This document shows, piece by piece, positions 5,271-42,933 of a DNA stretch of 50,923 nt. The position numbers were made by a program, and so were the translations under genes. A model generated the notes under the pieces. That model was not told the origin of the DNA. It saw only the letters and a program-made list of their open reading frames with translations, and searched no databases. Source of the DNA: Bacteroidota bacterium (GTDB lineage Bacteria; Bacteroidota; Bacteroidia; UKL13-3); assembly GCA_040386055.1 (NCBI GenBank), contig JAZKGH010000189.1:1-50923 (forward strand). Direction: 5' to 3'. Each line of letters starts with the position of its first letter. Positions within the stretch are counted from its first letter, which is position 1.

Positions 5271-5347
5271 TATGAGTGGTTTAGAGTGAATAGTGCGCGA
5301 AAATAAATTTTTATGTTAGATTTATCTCAAATTTTACGGGAAGGCAT

Positions 5348-26166: not shown

Positions 26167-28551
26167 ATGTATAAAGAGCGCTTCCAATTTGCTGTACAGC
26201 ATTTTTGCCTGAGTTATGGATTGCTCATTGTGTTGTTTTGGCTGGTTCGAATAGCGGAATTTGTGTTAGTTAGCGAAGCCAACTTGTTTCCTGAGCATCC
26301 AATGCCTTTGATGGCGGCAGGTTTTGCATTTGATCTGTGGTTTTGCCTCTTCCTATCCTTAGTTACTTTCCCCTTTTATGTGGTTTCATACCTAATCATT
26401 GGGCCATTTACCCGATACTTTTTGGCTATTGGTTTTATATTGTTTTTATTGGTGGATCTGGCATTGGTTCAATATTATGTGCAAACAACGTTACCGCTCA
26501 GTGCTGATTTTTGGGGTTATTCATTAGCCGATATTCAAACAACCGTAAACGCTTCAGCCGATTTTAGCATCCTTACTTTTGTTCCTTTTATGGTAGTACT
26601 GGCATTGTTTTTTTATACTTATAAGAGAGTGCAGGAAATATTTTTGCCAAATTGGGCATTGTATATGTTTTATGGATTGGCTTTGGTTTCGAGTGTCTTT
26701 TATGTTCTGAAAACACCTGATGCAACTTGGTTTACCACTGAAAATGATTACACTTTCAGTATGAATAAGATGGCTTTTTTTGCCGAAAAATCAGGAAGAT
26801 TTTATACAGAAGACATCGACAAAAACTCAGTTGCTGATACCGAATATCCCCTGGTGCATGTTGCTGATACCATAGATGTATTGAGTCCTTATTTTGATAG
26901 TTTGGAGCAGAAACCCAATCTGGTATTTTTGGTGATTGAAGGATTAGGCGGAACATTTGTGGGACCGAATGCCCGCTATGGTGGCTGTACACCTTTTCTG
27001 GATTCACTTGCCCAACACAGTTTGTATTGGCAAAATACTTTGAGTACAACAGGAAGAACGTTTGGTGTGCTTTCATCATTGTTTGGATCACTCCCGTATA
27101 ATGACAAGGGATTTTTGGAAACGGGTTCGAATATGCCAACGCACCTTACTTTGCTTAGTTTGCTCAAACAACACGGATACAATGTCCATTACTTTTATGG
27201 TGGCAATTCCAATTTCGATTTGCAGGATGTGTTTCTGGAAAAACAGGGTGTTGATTATATTTTGAGTTCTGACAAATTCCCTGCATCGTATCAAAAATTG
27301 AAAGCCAATAGTGAAGGTTTTTCATGGGGGTATTCTGATGAAGATGTATTTAAACGCTCTCTTGAATTGTTCCCGGCTGATACAGCCAAACCAACGCTTT
27401 CAGTGTATCTTACATTGAATACACATGAACCGTTTAGGGTTCCAAATCAACCTAAATACTTAGCATTACTGGATAAAGTCATGCATACCAAAACGGGAAC
27501 CGAACAAAAAAACTACAAGCAATATGCACTTGAACTTTCAAGCTTGTTGTATACAGATGATGCTATTCGTAATTTAATGGAAGCATATAAAAAGAGACCT
27601 GATTATACCAATACGATCTTTGTGATTACGGGTGATCATCGTATGATACCAATACCCCAGGTGAATCGTATTGACCGTTTTCATGTGCCGCTGATTGTGT
27701 TTTCACCTAAGTTGAAACGCTCACAAACATTTTCGTCTGTTAATACTCATCATGATGTTACACCCACACTACTTTCGTTTTTACAACATCAAACAGGGAT
27801 GACATTTCCCTATCAAGTACATTGGTTAGGAAAACCAATGGATACAACGGTTACATTTCATTCCATTCGCGATATAGCTTTGATGCGGAATAAAAATGAA
27901 CTGATAGATTATATTGACGGAGAGTATTTTTTATCTGATAACATTGCGTACCGTATTACTCCAAAGCTTGATTTGGAAAGGCTAGCGCGTGGTTCTCCGG
28001 AGGAAAAACAATTGAAAGCAAAAATGACTGCTTTTAAGCAGATGAACAAGTATGTGTTTGCCAATAATAAAATTTACAATGACAGTTTAGGGAAGACAAT
28101 TCCAAAAGAATTTAACTTTACTTATCTTGAAAAATTGACACTCCGGTTTATGGGTGTTGAGGGCATGAATCCGGAACAGTTGTTGGCCGCAGCTTATAAA
28201 CGAACAATCGTAAAACAATACAATAACGCACGATTGATTTGCAAATGGTGTCTTATCACGAGTCCGAATTTTATCGATGTGCGGTTGGTTTTGGGTCGTA
28301 CATATGCATGGGAGGGCAATTATGATGAAGCGCAAAAACAGTTTTCCGAAAGTGTGAAACGTTCACCCCTGAATGGAGAGGCCTGGAGGGCACTCATTGA
28401 TAACGAGTTATTATTTGGTCATTATGAAAAGGCAATTGAAATTTCGAAGCAAGCACATACAATAATTCCTAAAAGGGATTATACGGATAGGATAAAGGAG
28501 GCAAAGGCTTCACTGAAAAGACTAGTGAGTATGCCACCGCCAAAGATTTAA
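26167..28551 (+). CDS. Polytopic LtaS/sulfatase-family (alkaline phosphatase superfamily) enzyme with a C-terminal TPR domain.
   Basis: The N-terminal ~190 aa contain about five transmembrane helices. These are followed by NLVFLVIEGLGG, STTGRTFG (candidate Thr nucleophile), NTHEPF and VITGDHRM. The C-terminal ~150 aa are TPR-like (LGRTYAWEGNYDEAQKQF...). Confidence 0.75.
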   Translation: MYKERFQFAVQHFCLSYGLLIVLFWLVRIAEFVLVSEANLFPEHPMPLMAAGFAFDLWFCLFLSLVTFPFYVVSYLIIGPFTRYFLAIGFILFLLVDLALVQYYVQTTLPLSADFWGYSLADIQTTVNASADFSILTFVPFMVVLALFFYTYKRVQEIFLPNWALYMFYGLALVSSVFYVLKTPDATWFTTENDYTFSMNKMAFFAEKSGRFYTEDIDKNSVADTEYPLVHVADTIDVLSPYFDSLEQKPNLVFLVIEGLGGTFVGPNARYGGCTPFLDSLAQHSLYWQNTLSTTGRTFGVLSSLFGSLPYNDKGFLETGSNMPTHLTLLSLLKQHGYNVHYFYGGNSNFDLQDVFLEKQGVDYILSSDKFPASYQKLKANSEGFSWGYSDEDVFKRSLELFPADTAKPTLSVYLTLNTHEPFRVPNQPKYLALLDKVMHTKTGTEQKNYKQYALELSSLLYTDDAIRNLMEAYKKRPDYTNTIFVITGDHRMIPIPQVNRIDRFHVPLIVFSPKLKRSQTFSSVNTHHDVTPTLLSFLQHQTGMTFPYQVHWLGKPMDTTVTFHSIRDIALMRNKNELIDYIDGEYFLSDNIAYRITPKLDLERLARGSPEEKQLKAKMTAFKQMNKYVFANNKIYNDSLGKTIPKEFNFTYLEKLTLRFMGVEGMNPEQLLAAAYKRTIVKQYNNARLICKWCLITSPNFIDVRLVLGRTYAWEGNYDEAQKQFSESVKRSPLNGEAWRALIDNELLFGHYEKAIEISKQAHTIIPKRDYTDRIKEAKASLKRLVSMPPPKI

Positions 28552-28596
28552 ACTAAGTTAATTGCATAAGCTCTATTTTTGAATATAATCTAGTAC

Positions 28597-29856
28597 ATGT
28601 ATAAACTCATATTCATATTCTGTATTTTCCTTGCAACTGTTGCAGATGCACAAATGGATACAACCCAAATGGGAGCAGATGATCTATACTCACTGGCCCG
28701 AGAGAAGGCTTTTAGTGGTGACAGAGAAGGTGCACGTAGACTGTGTAGTCTGGCATTGGAAAAAAGTCCGAATTATCATGAAATAGCATTATTGATAGGA
28801 AGGACTTATGCATGGGACGGAAAAAAAGAAGAAGCAAGAAAAATATACAAAGGTATTCTTGCGAAAGAGCCCAATCATATTGAAGCAACATTGGCGTTGG
28901 CTGATGTGGAACTGTGGGACGATAAACCTCAGGATGCATTGGTTGCATTAGATAAATGCCTGACAGTATATCCCAATAATTTTGATTTGTTGCTCAAGAA
29001 AGCAAAAGCACTCATTGATGCCAAACTGGAAAATGAAGCCATGATGGTGTTGAGCCGGGCATTGGAGATTGATCCGGGATGTGTGGCCTGTATTCAGCTC
29101 AAACAAAAAATAAAGACAAAAAAATTCAAGCATACCTTATCCGTAAATGCAGCAACTGATGTTTTCTCTGCATATTTTGATCCGATGTATTATTCATCCC
29201 TGCAATTTGGATCGGTAACCAAACCGGGCACCGTTGTGGGCCGAATCAACTACACCAACCGATTCAATCAAAGCGGGATTCAACCTGAAGTGGATTTTTA
29301 CCCGGGTTTGTGGAAAGGTGCCTATGGATATTTGAACTATGGATTTACAACCTCATCCTTATTTGCACGTCACCGTGTAGGAGGTGAAATATTTCAATCG
29401 CTGCCGCGTAGTTTTGAAGCATCCTTAGGATTGAGATATTTGGATTTTGGAGCGGGCAATTCAATGACCATATACACAGGATCATTGGGTTGGTATTATA
29501 AAAACTATTGGTTTAATGCACGCACCTTTATCACTCCGTCAAATGGAACTTTTTCACGCTCGCTAAATGTAACAGCTCGCAGGTATTTTGCAGATGCAAA
29601 CAATTACATTGGCATTACGGCAGGAGCGGGTTTTTCACCTGATGCCCGAAGGATTCAGACCAATGAAGGATTGAATCCGGGTAATAATATTTACTTATTA
29701 AAGGCTCAGAAAATTGAATGCAACCTGCAAAAGAGTATTCGGTACAATATGAATTTCACTCTTGATGTATATTATTCGCATCAGGAACTCAGTTTCAGCT
29801 ACGGAGAATATGTGAATGTGGTGGGCATTACAACAGGTATTAAAATTAGACTTTAA
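28597..29856 (+). CDS. Outer membrane protein with an N-terminal TPR region and a C-terminal YaiO-like beta-barrel.
   Basis: It has the signal peptide MYKLIFIFCIFLATVADAQ and three or four TPR repeats (IGRTYAWDGKKEEARKIY...). About 240 aa of alternating-hydrophobic beta-strand pattern follow, rich in Tyr/Gly/Asn and ending in GIKIRL. The family name is from memory of YaiO-domain proteins. Confidence 0.65.
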   Translation: MYKLIFIFCIFLATVADAQMDTTQMGADDLYSLAREKAFSGDREGARRLCSLALEKSPNYHEIALLIGRTYAWDGKKEEARKIYKGILAKEPNHIEATLALADVELWDDKPQDALVALDKCLTVYPNNFDLLLKKAKALIDAKLENEAMMVLSRALEIDPGCVACIQLKQKIKTKKFKHTLSVNAATDVFSAYFDPMYYSSLQFGSVTKPGTVVGRINYTNRFNQSGIQPEVDFYPGLWKGAYGYLNYGFTTSSLFARHRVGGEIFQSLPRSFEASLGLRYLDFGAGNSMTIYTGSLGWYYKNYWFNARTFITPSNGTFSRSLNVTARRYFADANNYIGITAGAGFSPDARRIQTNEGLNPGNNIYLLKAQKIECNLQKSIRYNMNFTLDVYYSHQELSFSYGEYVNVVGITTGIKIRL

Positions 29857-29867
29857 AGCAGTAACAA

Positions 29868-30677
29868 ATGCTAACAACAGATCCTATTGGTAAAAATAAT
29901 GTGGTTGTGAAGGGTAATCTTCACGCCCGCGAAACCATTATTTTTAGTAATGGGTTTGGTACAGAACAATCTGTTTGGGATAAAGTGATAACTCCTTTTT
30001 TAGAGAATTACCGCATTATTTTGTATGACCTTGCTGGTTCCGGAAAATCGGATATGAATGCTTTTAGCTCCCATAAATATGATAGCCTGCGGGTGCATGC
30101 TGATGATTTAATTGACATATGCAAACGCATGCTTGTGAAAGATGCGATTTTTATTGGACATTCAGTAAGCGGAATGATAGGCATGCTTGCAGCGATTAAA
30201 GCTCCGCAGTATTTTTCGAAGATGGTTTTCATAAGTGCCTCTCCGCGTTACATCAATGCAGATGAATATGTTGGCGGATTCACACAAGAAACGTTAGATG
30301 AATTGTACCGGAACATGGAAACAAATTATTTTGCCTGGATTAGTGGTTTTGCCCCAATGACAATGCTCAATAGTGATAAACCTGAATTGGCAGAAGGGTT
30401 TTTGCAAACACTATCTGCCATTCGTCCTGATGTGGCTGTATCCGTAGTACGCACCATTTTTCAAAGCGATTACAGAAGTAGTTTGAAAGAGTTAACCAAA
30501 CCTGCGCTATTGATTCATTGCGATAACGATATGGCTGTTCCGGTAACTGTAGGAGCCTATATGAATGAACATATACCAAACAGTCAATTGGAGTTAATAG
30601 CTGCAGAAGGCCATTATCCTCATGTGAGTGCACCGGAGGCTGTAATCAAAGCAATTCAACGATTTATAGAAGTATGA
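29868..30677 (+). CDS. RsbQ / D14 / KAI2-type alpha/beta hydrolase.
   Basis: This 269-aa protein reads KNNVVVKGN...IIFSNGFGTEQSVW...ILYDLAGSGKSD...FIGHSVSGMIGM (nucleophile elbow) ...LLIHCDNDMAVP...AEGHYPHVSAPE. It is collinear with B. subtilis RsbQ as I recall it, and the Ser/Asp/His triad is intact (about S99, D221, H249). Confidence 0.85.
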   Translation: MLTTDPIGKNNVVVKGNLHARETIIFSNGFGTEQSVWDKVITPFLENYRIILYDLAGSGKSDMNAFSSHKYDSLRVHADDLIDICKRMLVKDAIFIGHSVSGMIGMLAAIKAPQYFSKMVFISASPRYINADEYVGGFTQETLDELYRNMETNYFAWISGFAPMTMLNSDKPELAEGFLQTLSAIRPDVAVSVVRTIFQSDYRSSLKELTKPALLIHCDNDMAVPVTVGAYMNEHIPNSQLELIAAEGHYPHVSAPEAVIKAIQRFIEV

Positions 30678-33151
30678 TGGAACGGGAACAAGATATAGAT
30701 TGGAATGCACACGCACTTGATTTTTTGGTGAAGCTTTCACCGATAAAAAAAATAAGGGAACAAGCACAGTTGATACGTGAAGTATTTTCACTGGTGGAAG
30801 AGTATATGCTGGCAGATGCTGTTTGTTTTTACCGCAATTTTGATGAACTCACCACACGAGTTGTTTTAGCGTCAAAGAAACAGGTTTTTCATTCGCACCT
30901 GAATCCGGATAGTGTACAAAACTATATCCGCTCAGACGAATATCAATCTGTGGAAAAAATATTTCAACCACTGTTTTTCATCAATGAGCAATATGAAAAG
31001 TGTATTGTGATTCCGCTATACAATACTGCATTGTCGGGTGGTTTGATTATGGGCTGGAAGGCCCTTAAAACGGATGAGGCAGGGTTCGATCGTTTTTTAA
31101 CGGGTGTGCAGATGGGAATGAATGAGATGATGCAACGTATGAGTGTGTATCATGAAATTGATGAACTCACCACGCGTTTTAATGCCATTCTCGAAACCAT
31201 TCCTGAAGGAATTGTGTATGTAGATGATTCGGGAAAATCAGCATGGGTAAATACAGTGGGTAGTGAATTGCTTAAGTTGAATCAGGGGAGCAATCAACCT
31301 TTTTTGGTTGCAACAGCTATGCAGGAATTGCGCAGCGGAGCAGTGAATCAGGAGGAGATTAATGAAATAGCGAATAAACTTTTCAGCGAACCCAATCAAA
31401 CCATTAAGGATTGGAAATGGATTATCGGAGACCCCATTCTATCCGTACTGCGTGTGGCCTGCAAACCCATTTCTTCACCGCTCGTAAATGGCCGGTTATG
31501 GGTATTTACCGATATTACCTTTTCACATATTGCTAATGAGCAACTAAAGGAATTAAATGAGGAACTCGCCATAAAACGTAATCTGGCCGATGAACAGAAT
31601 CAAGCTAAGTCTGAATTTCTGGCCAATATGAGTCACGAGATCCGTACACCAATGAATGGTGTAATCGGGATGACAAGTTTGCTTATGCATACGATACTCA
31701 CTGAAGAGCAAAAAGAATATGTTGACACTATTCGATTGAGTGGTGAAACACTGCTTTCACTTATCAATGATATTTTAGATTTATCCAAAATTGAATCTGG
31801 TAAGTTAGAAATTGAAGAAGCTCCAATGAGCTTGGTAAAACTGGTGGAAGAAACATACGACTTGCTTTCGGTACGTGCTAATGAAAAGGGGCTGGATTTA
31901 TTATACCTCATTGATCCGAATGTTCCGTCAGAGGTATTGGGTGATCCTACCCGTTTGCGACAAATATTGCTTAACCTTGTTTCCAACGGTATCAAGTTTA
32001 CTTCCAAAGGAGATATCCTCATTCATGTACAATCGATTGGTAAGCAAGAGGACGTTTACCATATTCAGATAAGCGTGAAAGACACCGGAATTGGGATACC
32101 TGCCAATAAATTCAACACTATTTTTGAGAGCTTTTCACAGGTTGACACATCCACTACACGAAAATATGGAGGAACGGGATTAGGCTTAAGCATTTGTCAG
32201 CGTTTAGTGAATATGATGGGAGGAACGATTTCTGTGAGCAGCACGGAAGGGTTAGGCTCTACCTTCACATTTAATATAAAAGTACACGCTAACCGTGAAG
32301 TGAAGCAGTTTGATTTTGCCCCCGTTGTAAAAGACACGCTGCTTACCGGCAAAAAAATACTCATTCTGGATGACAATGAAACTAACTTGCAGATTTTACA
32401 ATCCCAATGTAAATTATGGGGAATGAATCCGGTAATTTTTAACGATTGTCATTTGGCCATTGCGGAAATGGGACAGCAGGAGTTTGATTTGGCCATTGTA
32501 GATATGCTTATGGAGGAGTATGACGGTGTTGCTGTGGCAAGAGAAATGAAAATGAAATTTCCGGATAAAAAAATTCCGATTATTTTATTCAGTTCATTAG
32601 GATTCTCTCATTTTAAGAATAAGGAAGATAAAGATCTGTTTGCAGCAATACTGGTAAAGCCCACAAAACATAGCATGTTGAAAAAGACGATGATGGATAT
32701 ATTGGGTAGAAAAGAAGGATCTGAAATGGCAACAATGTCGGCAAGTGTTCTTTTATCTCAAACACAATCCATTGACAATATCCGTATCTTAGTGGCAGAG
32801 GATAATGACACCAATCAGAAACTCATTCGTAAAACTCTTGAAAAGCTGGGTTACGGATGTGAGCTGGTGAACAATGGTGTGGAGGCTGTAGAGGCTGCAA
32901 AGCGCAAGCAATACGATTTGATTTTGATGGATGTAATGATGCCGGAAATGGATGGGTATGAAGCAACTCAACAGATTATTGTGGGTGCTAAAGCCCATAA
33001 ACCCATTATTATAGCCATGACGGCAAATGCGTTGGCAGATGATAAGAACAAGGCTATGCGGGCAGGCATGGATGACTATATCAGCAAGCCTTTCCGCATT
33101 GCAGATATTGAAGAAAAAATAAACAAATGGAAACCGCATTTTCAGAATTGA
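30674..33151 (+). CDS. Cytoplasmic hybrid sensor histidine kinase with the architecture GAF-like, PAS, HisKA, HATPase_c, REC, REC.
   Basis: No transmembrane helix is present. The PAS region reads RFNAILETIPEGIVYVDD...GRLWVFTDIT, the H-box reads SEFLANMSHEIRTPMNGV, and the kinase has N/G boxes (LLNLVSNGIKFT, DTGIGIP, GGTGLGLSI). There are two receiver domains (LILDDNE...IVDMLM; ILVAEDND...LILMDVMMPEMDG...SKP). The start ATGATG overlaps the hydrolase stop by 4 nt. Confidence 0.9.
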   Translation: MMEREQDIDWNAHALDFLVKLSPIKKIREQAQLIREVFSLVEEYMLADAVCFYRNFDELTTRVVLASKKQVFHSHLNPDSVQNYIRSDEYQSVEKIFQPLFFINEQYEKCIVIPLYNTALSGGLIMGWKALKTDEAGFDRFLTGVQMGMNEMMQRMSVYHEIDELTTRFNAILETIPEGIVYVDDSGKSAWVNTVGSELLKLNQGSNQPFLVATAMQELRSGAVNQEEINEIANKLFSEPNQTIKDWKWIIGDPILSVLRVACKPISSPLVNGRLWVFTDITFSHIANEQLKELNEELAIKRNLADEQNQAKSEFLANMSHEIRTPMNGVIGMTSLLMHTILTEEQKEYVDTIRLSGETLLSLINDILDLSKIESGKLEIEEAPMSLVKLVEETYDLLSVRANEKGLDLLYLIDPNVPSEVLGDPTRLRQILLNLVSNGIKFTSKGDILIHVQSIGKQEDVYHIQISVKDTGIGIPANKFNTIFESFSQVDTSTTRKYGGTGLGLSICQRLVNMMGGTISVSSTEGLGSTFTFNIKVHANREVKQFDFAPVVKDTLLTGKKILILDDNETNLQILQSQCKLWGMNPVIFNDCHLAIAEMGQQEFDLAIVDMLMEEYDGVAVAREMKMKFPDKKIPIILFSSLGFSHFKNKEDKDLFAAILVKPTKHSMLKKTMMDILGRKEGSEMATMSASVLLSQTQSIDNIRILVAEDNDTNQKLIRKTLEKLGYGCELVNNGVEAVEAAKRKQYDLILMDVMMPEMDGYEATQQIIVGAKAHKPIIIAMTANALADDKNKAMRAGMDDYISKPFRIADIEEKINKWKPHFQN

Positions 33152-33153
33152 CT

Positions 33154-33510
33154 ATGAACAAACAGGAATACACTCATATTAATTTGTCATACCTCTATGA
33201 TATTGCAGATAATGATATTGATTTCGTAAAGGAGATGATTACGGATTACATCATAAAAGTACCGGTGCAGTTTACCGAAATGCAGACCGTATTCTGGGAA
33301 CGCAACTTTGAACAAACACATTTTATTGCGCATAAAATTAAATCGGCTTTTCAGTTTGTGGGGGCACAGCAACTGGTTGAATTGGCCCGCAATATTGAAA
33401 GGGTAAGTGAGACACAAGATATAGAAACCATCACACAGGATCTGGCCGCAATGGAGCCTGTTGTAAAATTGGTATTAACAGAATTGCAATCTGAATTGTC
33501 TGTTCTCTAA
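33154..33510 (+). CDS. Stand-alone Hpt (histidine phosphotransfer) protein.
   Basis: It reads FIAHKIKSAFQFVGAQQLVELARNIE, the HxxKG-type Hpt motif, in a ~118-aa helical protein. The ATG lies 2 nt after the kinase stop. The longer 33127 start would overlap the kinase by 25 nt. Confidence 0.8.
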   Translation: MNKQEYTHINLSYLYDIADNDIDFVKEMITDYIIKVPVQFTEMQTVFWERNFEQTHFIAHKIKSAFQFVGAQQLVELARNIERVSETQDIETITQDLAAMEPVVKLVLTELQSELSVL

Positions 33511-33525
33511 TTTCATTCGGACCTC

Positions 33526-33888
33526 ATGAAAAGAATATTAATAGTAGAAGATGAAGACTTGATTTTGAAGGCGCTTGAATTCAGGCTTCGGAGGGACGGC
33601 TATGACGTCATAAAGGCAAAGGATGGTCGCGATGGATTAAAGGCCATTGAAACGGAAATGTTTGATTTACTGATTACCGACATGATGCTTCCCTTTAATA
33701 ATGGACTTGAAGTGGTGAATAAAGCAAAAGAAATGAAGGGTAAGAATTTTCCGGTGATTGTTCTTTCCAATGTTGGCTTGGAAAATGTGGTATTGGATGC
33801 TTTCAAGCTGGGTGCTGACGATTATATTACTAAACCATTTAGCCCGGTAGAGTTATCGATAAGGGTAAAAAGGCTCTTAAATAAGTAG
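33526..33888 (+). CDS. Single-domain CheY-like response regulator with no output domain.
   Basis: This 120-aa protein reads ILIVEDEDL...DLLITDMMLP...VIVLSN...DDYITKPF, so all the receiver acidic pocket, Thr/Ser and Lys positions are present. Confidence 0.9.
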   Translation: MKRILIVEDEDLILKALEFRLRRDGYDVIKAKDGRDGLKAIETEMFDLLITDMMLPFNNGLEVVNKAKEMKGKNFPVIVLSNVGLENVVLDAFKLGADDYITKPFSPVELSIRVKRLLNK

Positions 33889-33932
33889 GATTGCAGACCT
33901 TGCTGTTTATATGGCCCCGATTTGGTTTTCGC

Positions 33933-35042
33933 ATGGAGTCACTATCCTCGAGCAAATCAGACCAGTATGATACTATCATTACATTTTGTATTGCCTTTAT
34001 TGTTTGCTGTCTTTCGGGTGCGTTCATTACCGGGGTTTATTTATTTTATATCAGGTTTCGTAATCAGTACTATGCCAAACGTATTGCCAGATTGGAAGAA
34101 CGTTACGGCTTGTTGCTCACCGGAATTATTTTTGATGAGGAAGACGAACAATTCGAAGAAAAGAGAAAGAAATTAATCAAGCATTTTAAGAAAACATATT
34201 TGCGTTCGCATTTTAATAAGCGTGTGTTGCGCAAAGAACTTCTTAAATTATATAAGAGCTTTAGCGGGTCCTCACAAAAAGTTTTGCGGGATTTGTATCT
34301 TGAATTGCGTCTGCACAAAGAAGCATTAGCAGATTTAAACAGTACCGATTGGAGTGTAAGAGCTGATGCAGTTAAAGAACTCGGTCAGATACAGTACACA
34401 GATGCAAAGCTTAAAATGTTGAAGTTGAGTTCTCACGAAAATCCAGAATTACGGCTGGAGGCACAAGCCGCTTTTCTGGCATTGGAAAAGGAAAATCCAT
34501 TTGGGTTTTTGGAGACAGCTAAAGCAAAAATTACCGAATGGCAACAGTTGAATCTGGAAGAAATAGCCAAACGAATAGAGTCGGATAAAATACCATTGTT
34601 TGCCAGTTGGTTTGGGTTACGCAACCAATCAGTGGTTGAATTTTGTGTGAAGATGACGGCAACCTTTAATCAGTTTGAGTCGGGTGAGGCGCTGATACAA
34701 TTGTTGCATGCCAAGGATATTCGTGTTGCCAAGGAAGCGGTAAAAGCATTGGGAAATCTGTTTGTAGTTGAAGCACAATTGCCCCTCATAGAATTATATC
34801 CCGGAAGCTCTCAGGAGGTTCAGAATGAAATTATCATGAGTCTTGGGAAACTTGGGGGAACAGAAGTGTTGCAGTTTTTAACAGATATTTTATACACGGC
34901 TCCGCATGAGCAAGCCATGAAGGCAGGTATGGCCATTCGCTCAACAGGATATGATGGAGATCTTATTTTGCAGCAGGCATTGCAAAGTGAAGATACACAT
35001 GTAGTAGCTATTGCGGAACATATGTTAGATGAAAGAATATAA
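33933..35042 (+). CDS. Membrane-anchored HEAT/PBS-lyase-like repeat protein.
   Basis: It has one N-terminal transmembrane helix (TIITFCIAFIVCCLSGAFITGVYLFYI), followed by repeated helical units: DWSVRADAVKELGQI, NPELRLEAQAAFLAL, DIRVAKEAVKALGNL and QEVQNEIIMSLGKLG. The start could instead be the TTG at 33891, which is 2 nt after the receiver stop. Confidence 0.65.
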   Translation: MESLSSSKSDQYDTIITFCIAFIVCCLSGAFITGVYLFYIRFRNQYYAKRIARLEERYGLLLTGIIFDEEDEQFEEKRKKLIKHFKKTYLRSHFNKRVLRKELLKLYKSFSGSSQKVLRDLYLELRLHKEALADLNSTDWSVRADAVKELGQIQYTDAKLKMLKLSSHENPELRLEAQAAFLALEKENPFGFLETAKAKITEWQQLNLEEIAKRIESDKIPLFASWFGLRNQSVVEFCVKMTATFNQFESGEALIQLLHAKDIRVAKEAVKALGNLFVVEAQLPLIELYPGSSQEVQNEIIMSLGKLGGTEVLQFLTDILYTAPHEQAMKAGMAIRSTGYDGDLILQQALQSEDTHVVAIAEHMLDERI

Positions 35043-35044
35043 GG

Positions 35045-36457
35045 ATGATTGAGATTTTTAATAATGCTATTCTATTATATGGTATAACGATTACGTTATC
35101 GTATGTGCTATTGGCTATTATTTCGGCAAGGGCACTCAATTATTATATTCGTAAAAACAAGTTTGTATCACATGAGGCATTGCTGTCATCACCCAATGCA
35201 CCATCAGTTTCATTGATTGCTCCCGCTTACAATGAAGAAAAAACAATTGTCGAGAATATTCGGTCCCTCTTGTCTATTCACTACAATAACTTTGAAGTAA
35301 TTATTGTGAATGATGGTAGTAAGGACAATACATTACAAACCATGATTGAGGCGTATGATTTACAGAAAGTAAATTTTGCCATACACCAGGAGTTACCCGG
35401 AAAACCGATAAGGGGTGTATATAAAGCCATGAATCCTGCATATAAAAAGCTCACTGTAGTAGATAAGGTAAATGGCGGGAAAGCAGATGCACTGAATGCC
35501 GGTATCAATATTTCCTCCTATGATTTGATTACTTGTATTGACGTGGATTGTATTATTGAACAGGACGGAATATTGCGTATGGTAAAACCTTTTATGGAGG
35601 AAAACGTAAAGGTGATTGCCAGTGGAGGAGTCATTCGCATTGCCAATTCATGTGAGATTGAAGATGGAAAATTAATTAAAGCACATGTTCCTAAAAGTTT
35701 GGTTGCAAGATTTCAGGTAATTGAATACTTAAGGGCTTTTTTAATGGGGCGTATGGGATGGAGTAAACTCAATGGACTCTTGCTTATATCCGGTGCGATG
35801 GGAATGTTTGACAGACGTATAGCCATAGCCAGTGGAGGGTATAATCACAATACTGTGGGTGAGGATATGGAACTGGTGGTGCGCATGAGGCGTTATATGG
35901 CCGATCGGAAAATAAAATATAAAGTAACCTACATTCCTGATCCACTTTGTTGGACGGAAGCTCCTTCCGATTACAAAATTCTTTCCCGCCAACGTAATCG
36001 CTGGATGCGGGGAACTATGGAAACACTATGGATCCACCGCAAACTGGCCTTCAATCCTCGTTATGGATTATTGGGATTGATAAGTTATCCATACTGGATG
36101 TTTTACGAATGGTTGGCTCCGGTGATTGAGTTTTTAGGAGTGTGTTATTTCGTATTTTTGATTGTAACGGGTTACGACAACTGGTATTTGTTTATGGTTT
36201 TGTTTCTGGTAGTGTATGCCTTTGCCATTTTCATGTCGTTTCTGGCATTATTGTATGAGGAACTTACATATCATCAGTATACAAGCAAGCGCGATACCTT
36301 GAAGTTGATGCTTACTGTTTTGCTTGAGCCGATTATCTATCATCCACGCAGCACCTGGTGGGGACTCAAAGGAAATATTGACAAAATAAAAGGTAAGAAT
36401 ACATGGGGAGAAATGACCCGTGCTGGTTTCAACAAGGTTGAAAATAAGAATGTTTAA
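35045..36457 (+). CDS. Processive family-2 glycosyltransferase (a PgaC/IcaA/BcsA/NodC-like polysaccharide synthase).
   Basis: It has an N-terminal transmembrane helix, then SLIAPAYNEE, IIVNDGSKDNT, GGKADALNAG, CIDVDCII (DxD), GEDMEL and SRQRNRWMRG (the Q-x-x-R-W processivity motif). About four C-terminal transmembrane helices follow. No PilZ-like RxxxR/DxSxxG tail is visible. It starts 2 nt after the HEAT gene stop. Confidence 0.85.
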   Translation: MIEIFNNAILLYGITITLSYVLLAIISARALNYYIRKNKFVSHEALLSSPNAPSVSLIAPAYNEEKTIVENIRSLLSIHYNNFEVIIVNDGSKDNTLQTMIEAYDLQKVNFAIHQELPGKPIRGVYKAMNPAYKKLTVVDKVNGGKADALNAGINISSYDLITCIDVDCIIEQDGILRMVKPFMEENVKVIASGGVIRIANSCEIEDGKLIKAHVPKSLVARFQVIEYLRAFLMGRMGWSKLNGLLLISGAMGMFDRRIAIASGGYNHNTVGEDMELVVRMRRYMADRKIKYKVTYIPDPLCWTEAPSDYKILSRQRNRWMRGTMETLWIHRKLAFNPRYGLLGLISYPYWMFYEWLAPVIEFLGVCYFVFLIVTGYDNWYLFMVLFLVVYAFAIFMSFLALLYEELTYHQYTSKRDTLKLMLTVLLEPIIYHPRSTWWGLKGNIDKIKGKNTWGEMTRAGFNKVENKNV

Positions 36458-36517: not shown

Positions 36518-37465
36518 ATGGTACACATGAATACATCCGGAATAGCTATACATGGTGGAGCAGGAACGATTTTACGTTCCCTTATGACTCCTGAAAAAGA
36601 GGCACTATACATTAAAGGGTTACAGGATGCAATTATTGCAGGAAATGCGGTATTGGAAAAAGGCGGATCAAGCTTGGATGCAGTAGAAATTGCGGTGATG
36701 ACACTTGAAGATTTCCCCCTGTTTAATGCGGGCAAAGGTGCTGTGTTTACCAACAAGGGAACGCACGAAATGGATGCCAGCATTATGGATGGATTAACAT
36801 TGGAGGCGGGTGCCGTTAGTGGTATCAGCAATGTGCAAAATCCGGTTCATTTAGCAAAGGTGATAAAGGAAAAAAGTGGTCATGTTTTTTTATGCGGACC
36901 CGAAGCAGAAGCTTTTGCCAAACAGATGGGATTGCCGTTTCAACCGGATGCTTATTTTTATGAAGAAGGGCGCCACAAACAATGGCAGGAAGTAAAAGAC
37001 AGTAATGGCTATCAACTGGATCATACAGTGAATAGCGGTGAAGGAAAAAAGTTCGGAACCGTTGGCGCAGTGGCGTTGGATAAACATGGAAACCTAGCAG
37101 CAGCAACATCAACAGGCGGCATGACCAACAAACGTTTCGGGCGCATTGGCGACACTCCGATGATTGGCGCAGGAACGTATGCAAACAATAAAACATGTGC
37201 AATCAGTTGCACAGGACATGGTGAATATTTTATCCGTGCCGTAGTGGCTTATGATATTAGCTGTTTAATGGAATACAAAGGAATGAGCTTGAAGGAAGCA
37301 TGCGACTTTGTTGTGAAAGATAAGCTTGTAAAATTTGGTGGTGAAGGTGGATTGGTTGCGATGGATGCTATGGGAAATATTGAGTTACCCTTTAACAGCG
37401 AAGGAATGTACAGAGCGTGGAAAAAGGGAGATGGAAATATTGAGGTGAGGATTTACGAAGATTAA
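36518..37465 (+). CDS. iaaA: Isoaspartyl peptidase / L-asparaginase (Ntn hydrolase).
   Basis: It reads IAIHGGAG...FNAGKGAVF...GTVGAVALD.HGNLAAATSTGGMTNK..GRIGDTP.IGAGTYA. The autocleavage Thr lies in GTVGAV. Confidence 0.9.
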   Translation: MVHMNTSGIAIHGGAGTILRSLMTPEKEALYIKGLQDAIIAGNAVLEKGGSSLDAVEIAVMTLEDFPLFNAGKGAVFTNKGTHEMDASIMDGLTLEAGAVSGISNVQNPVHLAKVIKEKSGHVFLCGPEAEAFAKQMGLPFQPDAYFYEEGRHKQWQEVKDSNGYQLDHTVNSGEGKKFGTVGAVALDKHGNLAAATSTGGMTNKRFGRIGDTPMIGAGTYANNKTCAISCTGHGEYFIRAVVAYDISCLMEYKGMSLKEACDFVVKDKLVKFGGEGGLVAMDAMGNIELPFNSEGMYRAWKKGDGNIEVRIYED

Positions 37466-37587: not shown

Positions 37588-38457
37588 TTAAGCAGTCACT
37601 TCTTCACTCGCAATAAACTTGCGCTCTTTCAATAAATACTGATTGCCTCTTACAAGGATGCTCACACGTAAGTTTTCTACTGCAATGGGTTCGCCCATGC
37701 CAACTTCGGTAATATTGCTGTGACGTATATCTTTTCCATCTACAATAACCACAGCACCGCTACCCACTACCTCCAAATTGGTACCACCTGTTACAATTAT
37801 ACCGGTATCTTCACCCAACCCTATTCCGGTACATTGCGGATTGCTGGCTACGGCTTGTGCCAAACGGTTAAAACGACCACGTTTGTCGAAATGTGAATCA
37901 ATAATCACGTTGGCCATAAACGCCAAACCGGTTGTGATTTTTACTTCACCTTTTAAGTGCGCCAACTCACTTTTGCCTTGATAGATCATGGTATTGCTCA
38001 TAGCCATTGCACCCGCACTGGTTCCTGCAATTACAAATCCTTCTTCATTCCAATAACGTTCGTGTAAAATGGTATAGATATCGGTGCCGCCAAAAATGCT
38101 GGTTAAACGCAACTGATCGCCTCCGCTAAACATAATACCATCCGCTTCTTTTACACGCTGAATATATTCTTCGTTGAATACATCTTCGCGTTTACGTATA
38201 TCCAATACACCCACATTTACGCACCCTATTTTACCAAATGCTTCCTGATAGTTTGCACCTACTTCAGTAGGAATGGAAGATGCTGTGGTGATAACTTCAA
38301 TACGTTTTTCAACGCCACCCACTTCATCCACAAAACGTTTTAAAATGCCAAGCTCGAAAAAATTGAGTCGGTTTCGCTGTATAAAGCCTTGCTCTAAGTC
38401 TGTTCCCTTATCTTCTGCACCGCCTACAGAAATCAGTTTTCCTTTAGGATATTCCAA
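37588..38457 (-). CDS. cphB: Cyanophycinase (peptidase S51).
   Basis: It reads LISVGGAEDKG...GIMFSGGDQLRL...VIAGTSAGAMAMS (Ser nucleophile) ...IIDSHF..RGR..RL, the cyanophycinase pattern. Confidence 0.9.
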   Translation of the reverse strand: MEYPKGKLISVGGAEDKGTDLEQGFIQRNRLNFFELGILKRFVDEVGGVEKRIEVITTASSIPTEVGANYQEAFGKIGCVNVGVLDIRKREDVFNEEYIQRVKEADGIMFSGGDQLRLTSIFGGTDIYTILHERYWNEEGFVIAGTSAGAMAMSNTMIYQGKSELAHLKGEVKITTGLAFMANVIIDSHFDKRGRFNRLAQAVASNPQCTGIGLGEDTGIIVTGGTNLEVVGSGAVVIVDGKDIRHSNITEVGMGEPIAVENLRVSILVRGNQYLLKERKFIASEEVTA

Positions 38458-39021: not shown

Positions 39022-40920
39022 TTATTTGCGGATTAATAATTTTTGAACAATTGATTGGCCACCAAAGGTCAATTGCGCCATATATAAACCTTCCGGAATA
39101 TCAGTCAAGGCGATGCGATGTTCGCGACTATTAATGGTTTGTTGTGAAACAATTTTACCGGTGATATCCATGATGGTGATATCACCTGATGCACCCGCAG
39201 GTATCTCAATAGATACATATTCATTTGCCGGATTCGGATACATTGTGAAAGAAGTATTCTTAACTGTTGTTTCATGCACCGAAACATAAGAACCTCCAAA
39301 GCTTAAGTTGTCAAGATAAAGTAAACCACCCATACCCGAAATACTATTGAATTTGAAGATAGCTTTATCGGCAGTAGCAAAATTGGTAAGATCAATAGTT
39401 TCGGTTCTCCATTCATCAGCTTTAGGTGTAAAAATACAAGCCTGCAAACTAAGTGCGTTTACAATGGGTTCCATTCTAGTGGCTAATTGCTGTCCGCCTT
39501 TTTTGTATATACTGGTAAATGTTGCTCCGCAATCGGTTGAGATAAGCACTTCAAGTGTATCTGCAAAATTGGTTTCAGAGGCTATATAAGGGGGAGTATA
39601 TCTATAATAAGTAAAGGCGAGATCCAAGTTGAGTTCCTTTTTGCTAAGCGCAGCAATATTGACAGCAGGCAATGAAAAACTTTCAATGGCATTGCGGGAG
39701 TAAAATAATAAGGCTGTATTAAAAGATGACATGGAATTTTGTCCCGATTTGCTAACCTCATCATCTATATACCATTCGAACACACTGCCGGAAGGATGGA
39801 AATACCAGGTGTTTGAAGTGTCGTCAAACGTTTGTGTGACGATGGATTTAGCCGCTCCCGTTGCCACATCAATTGCCAGTTCCAGTTTATTGTTGGAAAG
39901 AATTGAATCAGCTGGAGTATCATTTACACCGGTAATTGAAGCAGTAAACAGATACTGGCCATTGTTAGGTAGGTTTAATGATAATGGAACCATGGCATAG
40001 TGATTTGGCAGAATGGTTCCTGTCCATTGCTGAACGGTTGAAGCATTGCCGGTAGAAAGTGTAATGCTCAGAGAATGGATGATGGAATCCCCGTTGTTGC
40101 GCACAAAGCCTGTTGTTTGCAGGTTGTTTGAGCAAAAATGTTGTTGGTCATCAAAATCAAATAGATCGGCATCCAGATGAGGAACATTGCGGTTTATCAG
40201 AAACGAATAACTTTTTTGGGTGATGGTACTGTTGGGAATAGTATGTCCTACATTGGGAACAGATTCAAATTGTACGGGTGCATTGTTCTTTTTTAAGATC
40301 TCTACCAGTGCGGAGATTTGAGCGGTGTATGTGAAATCAGATTCTCCAACAGTGATAAACATAGGCAAGAACTCGGCATTGTCATAGCTGAACTGAAGAC
40401 TTGCGATTGAGTCGTTTTGCACATCCTTCAACCCTTGCATAGCCGGTGTATTCAATAGTAAAGCTTTAAACCACTCCGGATGATCCAGGCCATATTTTAG
40501 TGCACTGCGTCCACCGAGTGAAAAACCTTGAAGGACTACGGCTTGTGTATCGATAGTGTATTTGGTTTTTGCAAATTCTATGGAAGCTTTGACGATTTCC
40601 TGATCACCTTTGGGTTGGTAGAAATCTTTGTTTGCATCAGAACCTCCGTCAGGACAAACAAAAATAGTATTTGGGTAAATGGCAGGCCAGTTGAATGAAG
40701 TGATTAAAGCATTGCGGTAGTTGGTGCTATTGTCGCCCAAACCATGCAAACAAATCATCAGCCGGTAAGCCTGGGTAGAATCATAGTTTGAAGGAACATA
40801 ACAAGAAAGTGTTCTGTTTTCTGCATTGAAGGGAATGGTAGTATTAAATGATCCTGTTTGTGCAGAGGCAGTCATCAGTGTGATGACAAGCAGTGTGAAG
40901 AAGGTGGTTAATGTTTTCAT
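39022..40920 (-). CDS. Secreted esterase (alpha/beta hydrolase, phospholipase/carboxylesterase-like) with a T9SS C-terminal sorting domain.
   Basis: It has a signal peptide, then LHGLGDNSTNY, GFSLGGRSA (GxSxG) and VGHTIP. The C-terminal segment reads FTMYPNPANEYVSIEI...GLYMAQL...KLLIRK, as expected for a Por/T9SS secretion tail. Confidence 0.75.
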   Translation of the reverse strand: MKTLTTFFTLLVITLMTASAQTGSFNTTIPFNAENRTLSCYVPSNYDSTQAYRLMICLHGLGDNSTNYRNALITSFNWPAIYPNTIFVCPDGGSDANKDFYQPKGDQEIVKASIEFAKTKYTIDTQAVVLQGFSLGGRSALKYGLDHPEWFKALLLNTPAMQGLKDVQNDSIASLQFSYDNAEFLPMFITVGESDFTYTAQISALVEILKKNNAPVQFESVPNVGHTIPNSTITQKSYSFLINRNVPHLDADLFDFDDQQHFCSNNLQTTGFVRNNGDSIIHSLSITLSTGNASTVQQWTGTILPNHYAMVPLSLNLPNNGQYLFTASITGVNDTPADSILSNNKLELAIDVATGAAKSIVTQTFDDTSNTWYFHPSGSVFEWYIDDEVSKSGQNSMSSFNTALLFYSRNAIESFSLPAVNIAALSKKELNLDLAFTYYRYTPPYIASETNFADTLEVLISTDCGATFTSIYKKGGQQLATRMEPIVNALSLQACIFTPKADEWRTETIDLTNFATADKAIFKFNSISGMGGLLYLDNLSFGGSYVSVHETTVKNTSFTMYPNPANEYVSIEIPAGASGDITIMDITGKIVSQQTINSREHRIALTDIPEGLYMAQLTFGGQSIVQKLLIRK

Positions 40921-41036: not shown

Positions 41037-42848
41037 CTATTGGTAAGGAATAATGAGCACGACTTTTGTTCCGATGGCTTCGCTGTTATTCTTGAGATCC
41101 GTAATCGTGATCGAGACATCTACACCCGTTTCTTTTTGTAACACATTTAAACGCTCCTGAATGTTAGGGATTGCAGCCGATTGATAATGGATATTTTTGC
41201 CGGCTTTTATCTCTGCAGCACGTTCTCTGCCCACGCCATTGTCGGTAATTTCACATACAATTGTTTCACCTTCCAGTTTGAATTGCAATAGCAATGTTCC
41301 TTTGTCATCGTTGCGGTTGATTAACCCATGTCCAATAGCATTTTCAATAATCGGTTGAATCAGCATTCCCGGAATTTCATACACTCCGTTCCCTAATTCA
41401 CTATCTAATTTTAGGGTGTAATGAAACTTGTTGTTAAAACGAATGGCCTCCAGCTCCATGTATAGTTTCAGTTGTTCCAATTCATCTTCAAGCGGAATAA
41501 ATGTTTTGGCTGAATTTTCCATTACCAGACGTAGCAGTTTGGCAAAATTGGAAAGGTATTCGTATGCCTGTTCCCGCTGGTTATTCATTACAAAATGCTG
41601 GGCTGTATTGATGCAGTTGAAGATAAAATGCGGGTTCATCTGCGCGCGCAAGGCAAACATTTTGGCTTCGGCAATCTTGGTATTGAGAACTGAATGTTCA
41701 ATTTTTTCGCGCTGGTTTCTTCGCAACCATACCCATCCTATTACCACGCCAAACAAGAGCAATACGGCTACAGAACCTATAGTATATAAAGTGAATAGTT
41801 GTGCTTTGTTTTCAGCATCGAGTTTTTGGGTAGAGAGCTGTTCAATTTGCAATGCCTGTTCGGTATGCTGATACTTGGCTTCCATCTCAGCAACGGCCTG
41901 TGCGTTGTTGCTGCTGTCAACCGATAGTTTCAATTCAAGATACTGTTGAAGTGCTTCAAATGCTTGTTCGTACTTTTTTTGTTCGGAGAGAATATTACTA
42001 AGCAACATTTTTCCTTCAAGGAGTAACTCTGTTTGCCCTATGGCCTCTGCACCTTCCAGGCCTTTTTGTACTTCGGAATAAGCTTTGGTTAATGCTCCTG
42101 TTTGTCCGTACAAATTAGCCAACCCCAGGCGAACCATCGGAGGCACTTTACCTAATTCTGTTTTGGTTTCGAATGTTGTGATCGCCAGTTCCAGATAATA
42201 TTTGGCACTATCCATTTCTCCAAGGTCCAGATAAGAGGAACCAATATTAAAGTAGGAATACCCGACCCAGTAATAGTCCTTTCTGCTTAACCGGATAGCC
42301 AGCGATTGACGATAATATCCGATGGCCTCTTTGGTTTTATGCGTACTTACTGCACCCATATTGTTGAGCACCATTTCTAACCTGCTGGTATCTTTTAATC
42401 TGATAAACTCAGCTCGCGCAAGTTTCAGATATTGCATGGCCAGATCTGAGCGGCCAAACCGACTGTTTACTAATCCCAGCCGGTTCATGGTTTGTGCAAT
42501 ACCCGATGCATCCGGAATCGCTTTTTGTTTAGACAAGGCCTCGTGCAATAACCGTAAACTGGCTTCGTATTTGGATTCAAAACAATAGTAGTAGGCGCGT
42601 AAGGATTGAGCTCTGTATCTTCCCAAATCAAATTGTGTTCCGCAGGAGTCTTCATACTTCAATAGCATTTGAACAGCTGAGTCGCGGTTTAAGCCTGATA
42701 CTTTATTGATATACTTTAAGTAATAATCGCATTTGAGCTGAGGGTCTTTTTCATTGATAGAAACCTGCAATAAACTATCCAATGTTCCCGCGCGAAGCGA
42801 ACAAAACGGTAAGAGTAACAGCACCCCGATCCATGTATATTTTTTCAT
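41037..42848 (-). CDS. TPR-containing sensor histidine kinase of the LytS/YehU type (His_kinase PF06580-like).
   Basis: It has the signal/anchor MKKYTWIGVLLLLPF, about 300 aa of TPR-like repeats, a coiled coil, a transmembrane helix (LFTLYTIGSVAVLLLFGVVIGWVWL), then LRAQMNPHFIFNCINT and an ATPase domain (ENAIGHG...DNGVG). The ORF extends to 42926, so the true start could be there, 7 nt after the LytTR gene. Confidence 0.85.
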   Translation of the reverse strand: MKKYTWIGVLLLLPFCSLRAGTLDSLLQVSINEKDPQLKCDYYLKYINKVSGLNRDSAVQMLLKYEDSCGTQFDLGRYRAQSLRAYYYCFESKYEASLRLLHEALSKQKAIPDASGIAQTMNRLGLVNSRFGRSDLAMQYLKLARAEFIRLKDTSRLEMVLNNMGAVSTHKTKEAIGYYRQSLAIRLSRKDYYWVGYSYFNIGSSYLDLGEMDSAKYYLELAITTFETKTELGKVPPMVRLGLANLYGQTGALTKAYSEVQKGLEGAEAIGQTELLLEGKMLLSNILSEQKKYEQAFEALQQYLELKLSVDSSNNAQAVAEMEAKYQHTEQALQIEQLSTQKLDAENKAQLFTLYTIGSVAVLLLFGVVIGWVWLRRNQREKIEHSVLNTKIAEAKMFALRAQMNPHFIFNCINTAQHFVMNNQREQAYEYLSNFAKLLRLVMENSAKTFIPLEDELEQLKLYMELEAIRFNNKFHYTLKLDSELGNGVYEIPGMLIQPIIENAIGHGLINRNDDKGTLLLQFKLEGETIVCEITDNGVGRERAAEIKAGKNIHYQSAAIPNIQERLNVLQKETGVDVSITITDLKNNSEAIGTKVVLIIPYQ

Positions 42849-42933
42849 CGCAGTAAAATTCAGCATTTCATAGGGTAACAATGTTGCAAATTTGTAGATA
42901 ATCGTTTTCAGTTTGTAATCGGACATGTGAATG

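Follow-up and report, generated by a model that had tools for sequence, protein, structure and literature searches.

RsbQ/KAI2/D14-type hydrolases paired with GAF-PAS sensor proteins in Bacteroidota and Cyanobacteria, and a likely link to polysaccharide synthesis

The alpha/beta hydrolase RsbQ of Bacillus subtilis contacts the PAS domain of RsbP, in which the F-alpha helix is critical, and needs its catalytic triad for signalling (PMC3183031), while an AlphaFold2 (AF2) model places RsbQ at the interface between the PAS domain and the linker (PMC12143880). Nadezhdin, Brody and Price described in 2011 a bipartite 'RsbQ-PAS' module from 45 gene pairs, with PPM phosphatases, histidine kinases (three of them hybrid) and diguanylate cyclases as outputs (PMC3183031). 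The present analysis concerns a 50,923-nucleotide stretch of DNA from a Bacteroidota bacterium (assembly GCA_040386055.1, contig JAZKGH010000189.1; hereafter referred to as the window), in which the gene for a hydrolase of this type overlaps that for a soluble hybrid histidine kinase with a GAF-PAS sensor. The principle of an RsbQ-type hydrolase combined with a sensor domain, histidine kinases included, was already established in 2011, and the novelty that a preliminary description of the locus had attached to the pairing does not hold, as modules of this kind with histidine kinases, hybrid ones among them, were catalogued in that survey (PMC3183031). The survey was seeded with the RsbP-PAS and was therefore able to find that partner type only; Bacteroidetes, cyanobacteria and GAF find no mention in it (PMC3183031). 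In the full-text literature searched for RsbQ in combination with GAF, with Bacteroidetes or cyanobacteria, or with exopolysaccharide, the present arrangement was not described.

The locus resembles RsbQ-RsbP and the RsbQ-PAS pairs in having the hydrolase gene directly upstream of that for a cytoplasmic signalling protein, which is composed of an N-terminal sensor, a long helix and an exchangeable output. It differs from RsbQ-RsbP in that the partner begins with a GAF domain, the PAS domain coming second, and in that this PAS domain keeps a DIT motif which is absent from the RsbP-PAS (PMC3183031). It differs from the RsbQ-PAS module also in the lineages involved (Bacteroidota and Cyanobacteria), in the addition of a class III cyclase to the outputs and in a regulatory target that is readable from the genome in the form of polysaccharide synthase genes. 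The pair, a hydrolase with a GAF-PAS sensor, thus falls outside the strict RsbQ-RsbP-PAS module, and the type of the partner sensor and the linked output are new.

The association of the two genes was examined in both directions. In the forward survey, a hydrolase profile scan over one genome per GTDB species gave 80 loci, 79 of them with an evaluable downstream open reading frame (ORF), and this ORF carries the PAS domain of the window kinase in 77 of the 79 (E 1e-18 to 1e-83). The genomes include Bacteroidota (Pedobacter, Mucilaginibacter, Flavipsychrobacter, Niabella, Arcicella, Sporocytophaga, Spirosoma and others) and filamentous Cyanobacteria (Microcoleus, Coleofasciculus, Laspinema, Oscillatoria, Leptolyngbya and others). 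For the reciprocal survey a metagenome scan was seeded solely with the PAS profile; it yielded 42 loci, and an RsbQ-like hydrolase lies upstream of the PAS-bearing gene in 38 of the 39 that had enough upstream sequence. The partner starts between -16 and +8 nucleotides from the hydrolase stop in 62 of 88 loci evaluated. Spacing from the hydrolase to the PAS domain is about 152-173 or about 262-289 residues in 36 of 38 metagenome loci, the value at L131 being anomalous (28 residues) and the 289 of L111 arising from a partial hydrolase match. In the window the junction reads GAA GTA TGA TGG, the kinase ATG (30674-30676) overlapping the hydrolase TGA (30675-30677) with a second ATG immediately following; both ORFs and their overlap are as first described. 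The adjacency of hydrolase and kinase is far beyond chance and close to obligate, and the hydrolase is very probably a functional partner dedicated to the GAF-PAS hybrid kinase.

The outputs found on the GAF-PAS sensor comprise hybrid histidine kinases, plain histidine kinases, histidine kinases with a fused Hpt domain, a GGDEF-EAL protein (L059) and a class III nucleotide cyclase (L088), the last two in cyanobacteria. The sensor retains the hydrolase while the output domain is swapped, and the two therefore behave as a modular input device.

Some of the loci surveyed carry irregularities of their own. The frame of the partner kinase is interrupted in two Niabella isolates (L020, 7168-7731, 187 residues; L032, 6791-7312, 173 residues), which may represent pseudogenes or indel errors of long-read assembly. 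The hydrolases on two contigs labelled 'MAG: Acinetobacter pittii' (L016, 5.5 kb) and 'MAG: Sulfurimonas sp.' (L021) cluster with those of Niabella and Arcicella, respectively, and the contigs are probably mis-binned Bacteroidota sequences.

In a phmmer search of the sequences in the PDB, the window hydrolase matched a KAI2-like protein (E 6e-68), B. subtilis RsbQ (1e-65) and D14 (about 1e-60) best. The weakest chain of the RsbQ/KAI2/D14 family had an E-value of 1.7e-47 against 8.6e-15 for the next unrelated hydrolase, the corresponding bit scores being 165-232 for all the chains of the family and at most 58 for the next hydrolase. Against the NCBIfam models for catabolic hydrolases (PcaD, BioH, RutD and others) it lies far below every cut-off, and a protein 100% identical to it (P0002) is annotated as an alpha/beta hydrolase at NCBI. 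Sequence identity is 43% to PpKAI2L-C, 40% to AtKAI2, 39% to RsbQ and 35% to AtD14, the reference sequences of RsbQ, AtKAI2 and AtD14 having been verified as identical to 1wom, 4ih1 and 4ih4, and 21% to E. coli BioH, for which an unverified sequence was used. The nucleophile elbow GHSVSGMIG (residues 97-105, with Ser99) and the motifs CDNDMAVP (Asp221) and EGHYPH (His249) contribute a triad that aligns with S95/D217/H246 of KAI2 and is invariant in 91 of 91 sequences compared, homologues and references taken together. In the PDB-verified sequences, the GHSVS form of the elbow is that of KAI2 and D14 (GHSVSAM), unlike that of B. subtilis RsbQ (GHSVGAL), and both the elbow and the retained triad are as given in the preliminary description.

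The AF2 model of the hydrolase, built with 20 homologues, has a pLDDT (predicted local distance difference test) score of 92.9 and shows lid helices at residues 140-152, 154-165, 173-183 and 187-198. It superposes on KAI2, D14 and RsbQ with template modelling (TM) scores of 0.91-0.94 and root-mean-square deviations of 1.3-2.0 A, and its top 50 structural matches all belong to the RsbQ/KAI2/D14 family. Neither a signal peptide nor a transmembrane segment was found in the protein. The generic meta-cleavage or haloperoxidase-type hydrolases had been named as the alternative affiliation; the family scores, the triad and the superposition place the protein in the RsbQ/KAI2 clade, and there is hardly any doubt that it is a member of the RsbQ/KAI2/D14 (DKR) family.

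Of the 27 columns that we take to line the pocket, 21 are identical to AtKAI2 in the window hydrolase and 14 in B. subtilis RsbQ, so that the pocket, as far as the aligned residues indicate, appears nearer to that of KAI2 than the pocket of B. subtilis RsbQ is. At the columns equivalent to F27, Y125 and L144, the pocket residues of RsbQ singled out by Melville et al., the hydrolase has F, Y and L. The likeness to plant KAI2 and D14 thus extends over the fold, the triad, the GHSVS elbow, the four-helix lid and the pocket; identity is only 35-43%, and the partner here is a bacterial GAF-PAS kinase and not the F-box protein MAX2 with SMAX1/SMXL. A neighbour-joining tree, computed without bootstrap and without proteobacterial RsbQ, has a clade of Bacteroidota and Cyanobacteria beside plant KAI2/D14 and B. 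subtilis RsbQ outside, and for these reasons no conclusion on the origin of the plant genes is drawn from it.

The kinase carries no transmembrane segment, its highest Kyte-Doolittle mean over 19 residues being 1.33 against the threshold of 1.6 used, and residues 1-300 gave no Pfam match at E<0.01. The AF2 model of this sensor region is usable for the first domain, where residues 11-150 have pLDDT values of about 65-86 with a dip to 53 near residues 61-70, and poor for the second. Foldseek searches with this model retrieved, for residues 1-160, the GAF domains of Nlh1 (TMt 0.70) and NifA (0.59), the structure 3k2n (0.58), and also fRMsr and phytochrome GAF domains. A profile of 56 Bacteroidota N-terminal sequences aligned with the region preceding the PAS domain in the cyanobacterial partners over 152 columns (hhalign 98.9%, E 1.6e-17). 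That cyanobacterial region is assigned to GAF_2 by Pfam in 16 of the 27 members. Scanned directly with Pfam, the domain of the window kinase and its relatives in Bacteroidota were not recognised, the single hit among 56 sequences having an E-value of 0.04. Residues 1-160 are a highly divergent GAF domain, by fold and by transitive profile homology, which together with the PAS domain bears out the GAF-like plus PAS region first noted for the kinase. The lack of a membrane segment likewise agrees with the first description.

When 1.84 billion representative proteins were scanned exhaustively by HMMER with residues 1-160, only four true relatives reached library-wide significance, all of them kinases of the same architecture; a further match, P0124, is a repeat protein and was discarded as spurious. 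The idea that the N-terminal domain is almost unique was rejected, as a small-database search and the profile comparison find a fast-evolving domain in most Bacteroidota partners. Among these, D57 is invariant and W10, F17, T60, P114 and F141 are nearly so, identity falling to 13-28% outside the close relatives. A D-x-x-T motif (D57-T60, window positions 30842-30853) is the sole near-universal feature of the GAF domain in both phyla, with FDELTT here and LDEVTA in cyanobacteria. In the cyanobacterial partners (L042-L089) the GAF domain is preceded by an additional N-terminal stretch of about 110-130 residues (about 1-125), which has a conserved HPxRLPTFxP-like motif and for which Pfam gave no match at E<0.01 in 27 members.

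The PAS domain of the window kinase gives a weak direct match to the cytoplasmic PAS domain of DcuS. A profile of 84 orthologous domains matches the PAS domains of DcuS, DhaR, CitA and WalK (DhaR at E 5.5e-5), and 64 of the 84 family members individually match PF00989. Residues W191, N193, M216, N225 and G273 are invariant across the 84 partners, and D280-I281-T282 is conserved in the close relatives, DIT appearing in the family consensus. The domain is unusually rich in conserved Trp residues (W191, W247, W249 and W276); these and D57-T60 of the GAF domain are candidate interface or ligand residues.

The RsbP-PAS is marked by a conserved F-alpha helix and nine signature residues (PMC3183031). 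Comparison with a profile of it, a shallow one of 9 sequences, gave an hhalign probability of 0.1% (E 0.5) for the 84-sequence PAS profile and of 0.5% for the GAF profile; the RsbP query was checked against database fragments 94-99% identical to it, and the PDB search returned no RsbP structure. Two assignments were rejected on these grounds. A cryptic RsbP-type PAS domain in residues 1-160 is contradicted by the fold search, which gives GAF, and by the negative profile comparison, and an RsbP-type identity of residues 161-295 by the negative profile comparison and the presence of the DIT motif.

As a two-domain unit the sensor is matched best, in structure, by DhaR(N), the GAF-PAS part of E. 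coli DhaR, which was crystallised bound to DhaK and DhaL (4lrx/4lry/4lrz). DhaR is a cytoplasmic protein whose GAF-PAS senses by binding enzyme subunits and not a free ligand, and to this extent it resembles the present pair; its output is that of a sigma-54 activator, its partners are dihydroxyacetone kinase subunits and the identity is 10-14%, the likeness being mechanistic and by analogy, not by orthology.

The output part of the kinase and the two genes that follow it supply all the parts of a His-Asp-His-Asp phosphorelay, namely HisKA, HATPase_c and receiver domains, an Hpt protein and a terminal receiver, with all phospho-acceptors (His321, D610, D753, His69 of the Hpt and Asp52 of the stand-alone receiver) each lying within an intact motif. 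None of the named NCBIfam kinase equivalogs was reached, the scores being 448 against a cut-off of 890 for BarA and 431 against 676 for TorS, and the kinase, which lies below all such cut-offs, is thus not orthologous to a kinase that has been characterised. No specific NCBIfam family was found for the HEAT-repeat protein or for the stand-alone receiver.

Genes for a family-2 glycosyltransferase (GT2), a HEAT-repeat protein and a TPR-YaiO protein are co-directional with the pair in the window and in L001/L010, L003, L005, L006 and L008, and divergent from it in L015, L023, L026, L029 and L035, an arrangement partly visible in L027. In the divergent layout, the receiver, HEAT and GT2 genes occupy one strand and the hydrolase, kinase and Hpt genes the other, while in L023 the Hpt is fused onto the C-terminus of the kinase. 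The linkage survives this rearrangement and therefore supports a relay from the kinase through receiver and Hpt to the stand-alone receiver and the synthase complex. As the synthase genes stay with the pair in both layouts, polysaccharide synthesis, proposed at the outset as the likely output, is indeed a likely output of the module. Control is probably post-translational, since a DNA-binding domain is absent from the terminal receiver. The gene set shares with PgaABCD/IcaADBC a GT2 synthase with several transmembrane segments, an outer-membrane barrel that contains TPR and a small accessory protein of the membrane. It differs in a porin of the YaiO type and not PgaA, in a HEAT-repeat protein as the accessory, and in control that apparently falls to a single-domain receiver in its phosphorylated form instead of cyclic di-GMP; by score the GT2 is not a PgaC/IcaA poly-beta-1,6-GlcNAc synthase (134 bits against an equivalog cut-off of 422).

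The reading proposed here, which is considered reasonably probable, is that of a two-protein cytoplasmic chemosensor that acts through a four-step phosphorelay to switch on synthase-dependent polysaccharide production. The KAI2-like pocket of the hydrolase would bind a small hydrophobic lactone or butenolide-like molecule, which the enzyme would probably also turn over, and by touching the GAF-PAS region the hydrolase would alter kinase autophosphorylation via the long helix between PAS and HisKA. Phosphate would then pass from His321 to D610 and/or D753, to His69 of the Hpt and to Asp52 of the stand-alone receiver, which would most likely act post-translationally on the membrane HEAT protein and the GT2 synthase; export of the polymer would be by way of the TPR-YaiO barrel, with modification by the sulfatase-fold protein being possible. 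Within this scheme the contact between the two proteins, the ligand's identity, the sign of the regulation and the receiver's target are all predictions. A butenolide-like class for the ligand is suggested by two things, the KAI2-like pocket and the published hydrolysis of butenolides by RsbQ. The earlier statement that the ligand of RsbQ-type proteins is unknown stands for the endogenous ligand and has otherwise been overtaken, as RsbQ is now known to hydrolyse butenolides, with published cases from Bacillus and Stenotrophomonas, and to be inhibited by them (preprints 10.1101/2023.12.05.570042 and 10.1101/2025.03.14.642314).

Whether the hydrolase is itself the receptor and signals by contact (model 2 of Nadezhdin et al.) is, in our estimate, evenly balanced, and this version, which follows a proposal for RsbQ-RsbP and is analogous to DhaR-DhaK/L, is the best supported. 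LuxP-LuxQ of Vibrio, which Nadezhdin et al. cited as a precedent for the receptor-by-contact model (PMC3183031), similarly has a separate ligand-binding protein docked on PAS domains of a hybrid kinase and an Hpt-based phosphorelay; unlike the present pair it is periplasmic, and LuxP is not an enzyme and has an unrelated fold.

Several observations weigh against the proposed scheme or narrow it. Most loci of Pedobacter, Mucilaginibacter and the cyanobacteria have no polysaccharide genes within 6 kb, and the polysaccharide output is for that reason taken to be lineage-specific; the target assigned to the stand-alone receiver is predicted purely from gene order. The AF2 model of the sensor is of moderate quality, with a pLDDT of 63 overall and below 50 in the PAS part, from an alignment of 5 sequences. 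Synthetic butenolides inhibit and do not activate RsbQ signalling in B. subtilis (10.1101/2023.12.05.570042), and a butenolide may therefore not be the natural agonist. A GAF-PAS hybrid kinase (L122; 828 residues, 3021-5507) occurs without a hydrolase in 7.4 kb, and of the hydrolase at another locus (L007; GCA_009829085.1, 7592-7993) no more than the C-terminal half is left (residues 134-267), without the nucleophile Ser; the kinase may therefore sometimes act alone. The L122 kinase is preceded by a 425-residue ORF in place of the hydrolase, which may be located elsewhere in the genome or have been lost. At L007, where the GAF-PAS kinase is intact downstream and a DDE transposase lies about 1.4 kb past it, the hydrolase looks like a naturally decayed copy.

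The first alternative to the hydrolase as receptor is ligand delivery (model 1 of Nadezhdin et al.), in which a product of the hydrolase would be handed to a pocket of the GAF or PAS domain, these domains being the true sensor and the hydrolase an obligatory processing enzyme. It merits attention as a minority possibility. The invariance of the triad in all 91 sequences suggests that catalysis matters beyond binding; the RsbQ triad is required in B. subtilis signalling (PMC3183031), and the GAF and PAS domains offer two potential small-molecule pockets, the latter with its conserved Trp residues. Yet in plants the same family is the receptor itself with the triad conserved there too, and the low identity of the GAF domain outside close relatives would be unusual for a shared ligand pocket.

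The hydrolase may, in a second alternative, be a signal-degrading or metabolic enzyme such as a lactonase or esterase, co-expressed with the kinase and tuning, without contact, a molecule that the kinase senses alone. RsbQ-family proteins are efficient butenolide and strigolactone hydrolases in vitro, and the persistence of the kinase without an intact hydrolase at L122 and L007 would fit such a role; the near-obligate adjacency of often overlapping genes, in two phyla and with four outputs, is instead typical of physical partners, and contact has been shown experimentally for RsbQ-RsbP in the homologous system (PMC3183031), which makes this alternative improbable. The weakest, that of a polysaccharide-tailoring esterase (for instance deacetylase-like) standing beside the kinase by accident, would accommodate the position of the hydrolase among the polysaccharide genes of the window. 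For practical purposes it can be dismissed, since the hydrolase goes with the kinase and parts from the synthase genes where the block splits; the enzyme also lacks a signal peptide or transmembrane segment, and its pairing with the same sensor recurs in genomes without nearby exopolysaccharide genes and with GGDEF-EAL or cyclase outputs.

The hydrolase and the kinase form part of a tightly packed, co-directional block of eight genes (26167-36457, forward strand; Table 1), the successive gaps of which measure 45, 11, -4, -25, 15, 2 and 2 nucleotides, and which from this spacing would constitute a single transcription unit. The block is also present in related metagenome-assembled genomes at 78%, 76%, 63% and 60% hydrolase identity and is mostly kept at 50%. 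A scan of the operon for sigma-70 promoters and terminators gave fewer matches than shuffled sequence, the sigma-70 model being uninformative for Bacteroidota, and Rfam and tRNA scans of the 50.9-kb window found no Rfam families and no tRNAs.

Table 1. Genes of the eight-gene block and domains of the hybrid histidine kinase, with positions in the window
Feature	Position	Strand	Remarks
Multi-transmembrane protein of sulfatase/alkaline-phosphatase fold with C-terminal TPR	26167..28551	+	First gene of the block; candidate polymer-modifying transferase
TPR + YaiO outer-membrane beta-barrel	28597..29856	+	Candidate export porin
RsbQ/KAI2/D14-type alpha/beta hydrolase, 269 residues, cytoplasmic	29868..30677	+	Triad Ser99/Asp221/His249; lid helices in residues 140-198
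Soluble hybrid histidine kinase, 825 residues	30674..33151	+	4-nucleotide ATGA overlap of start with hydrolase stop
Divergent GAF domain, kinase residues 1-160	30674..31153	+	Fold and profile match
Hydrolase-associated PAS domain, kinase residues 161-295	31154..31558	+	DIT motif (D280-I-T282) at the end
HisKA (311-376; phospho-His321 in SHEIRTP) and HATPase_c (423-537)	31604..32284	+	Pfam
Two receivers, about 561-680 (Asp610) and 705-816 (Asp753)	32354..33121	+	Pfam; acidic pocket, Ser/Thr and Lys motifs intact in both
Stand-alone Hpt, 127 residues, His69 in AHKIKS	33127..33510	+	25-nucleotide overlap with the 3' end of the kinase gene
Stand-alone receiver, 120 residues, Asp52, without output domain	33526..33888	+	Stays with the HEAT and GT2 genes in other genomes
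HEAT-repeat protein with one N-terminal transmembrane helix	33891..35042	+	Block member
Multi-transmembrane family-2 glycosyltransferase (GT2)	35045..36457	+	PgaC/IcaA-like synthase, below the equivalog cut-off

The polysaccharide block is flanked by a set of genes for cyanophycin metabolism, comprising an Asparaginase_2 of the isoaspartyl-peptidase type (36518-37465, forward strand), a Peptidase_S51 of the cyanophycinase family (37588-38457, reverse strand) and a cyanophycin synthetase with Cyanophycin_syn, ATP-grasp and Mur ligase domains (43892-46543, forward strand); these genes also neighbour the block in L001, L003, L005 and L006. A TPR-containing His_kinase (PF06580, LytS/YehU type; 41037-42926, reverse strand) adjoins a 252-residue ORF (42934-43692, reverse strand) that is probably its LytTR response regulator, and the two appear to form a second, unrelated two-component system. 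Other genes in the window encode a 632-residue esterase/S9-like hydrolase (39022-40920, reverse strand), unrelated to the RsbQ-type hydrolase, whose C-terminal type IX secretion system sorting domain (Por_Secre_tail) is consistent with a Bacteroidota origin, and an 845-residue protein with CarboxypepD_reg and DUF5686 domains (12200-14737, reverse strand).

For two decades the natural ligand has, to our knowledge, proved elusive both for RsbQ and for plant KAI2. What an RsbQ-type module regulates is known in B. subtilis only (PMC3183031), where RsbQP acts, via sigma-B, as a negative regulator of biofilm formation and butenolides enhance it (10.1101/2023.12.05.570042), a link that is paralleled by the wiring to a polysaccharide synthase proposed here. 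The GAF-PAS sensor represents a second partner architecture, in which the hydrolase would be the constant element and the docked sensor domain the exchangeable one. The locus also offers a pocket seemingly nearer to KAI2 than that of the Bacillus model protein, a self-contained and genetically readable output in the predicted phosphorelay to a polysaccharide synthase, and culturable relatives in which the pair occurs (Pedobacter, Mucilaginibacter, Arcicella, Spirosoma and Flavipsychrobacter). A broader proposal can be put forward only tentatively, as a conjecture that may well prove wrong: a widespread 'Q-GAF-PAS' input module of Bacteroidota and filamentous Cyanobacteria, in which the hydrolase would perceive an endogenous or plant- or algal-derived butenolide-like signal, possibly akin to the KAI2 ligand, and would control, according to lineage, surface polysaccharide and biofilm formation, the turnover of cyclic di-GMP or the synthesis of cyclic nucleotides. 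The principle itself will not surprise a specialist; the long-standing question of the ligand becomes more tractable through the distinct GAF-PAS partner with its spread over two phyla and four outputs, through a pocket that resembles KAI2 and through an output that can be read. Should the Q-GAF-PAS proposal be true, the module could provide a bioassay for the natural ligand of this receptor family, because its output is a discrete block of synthase genes.

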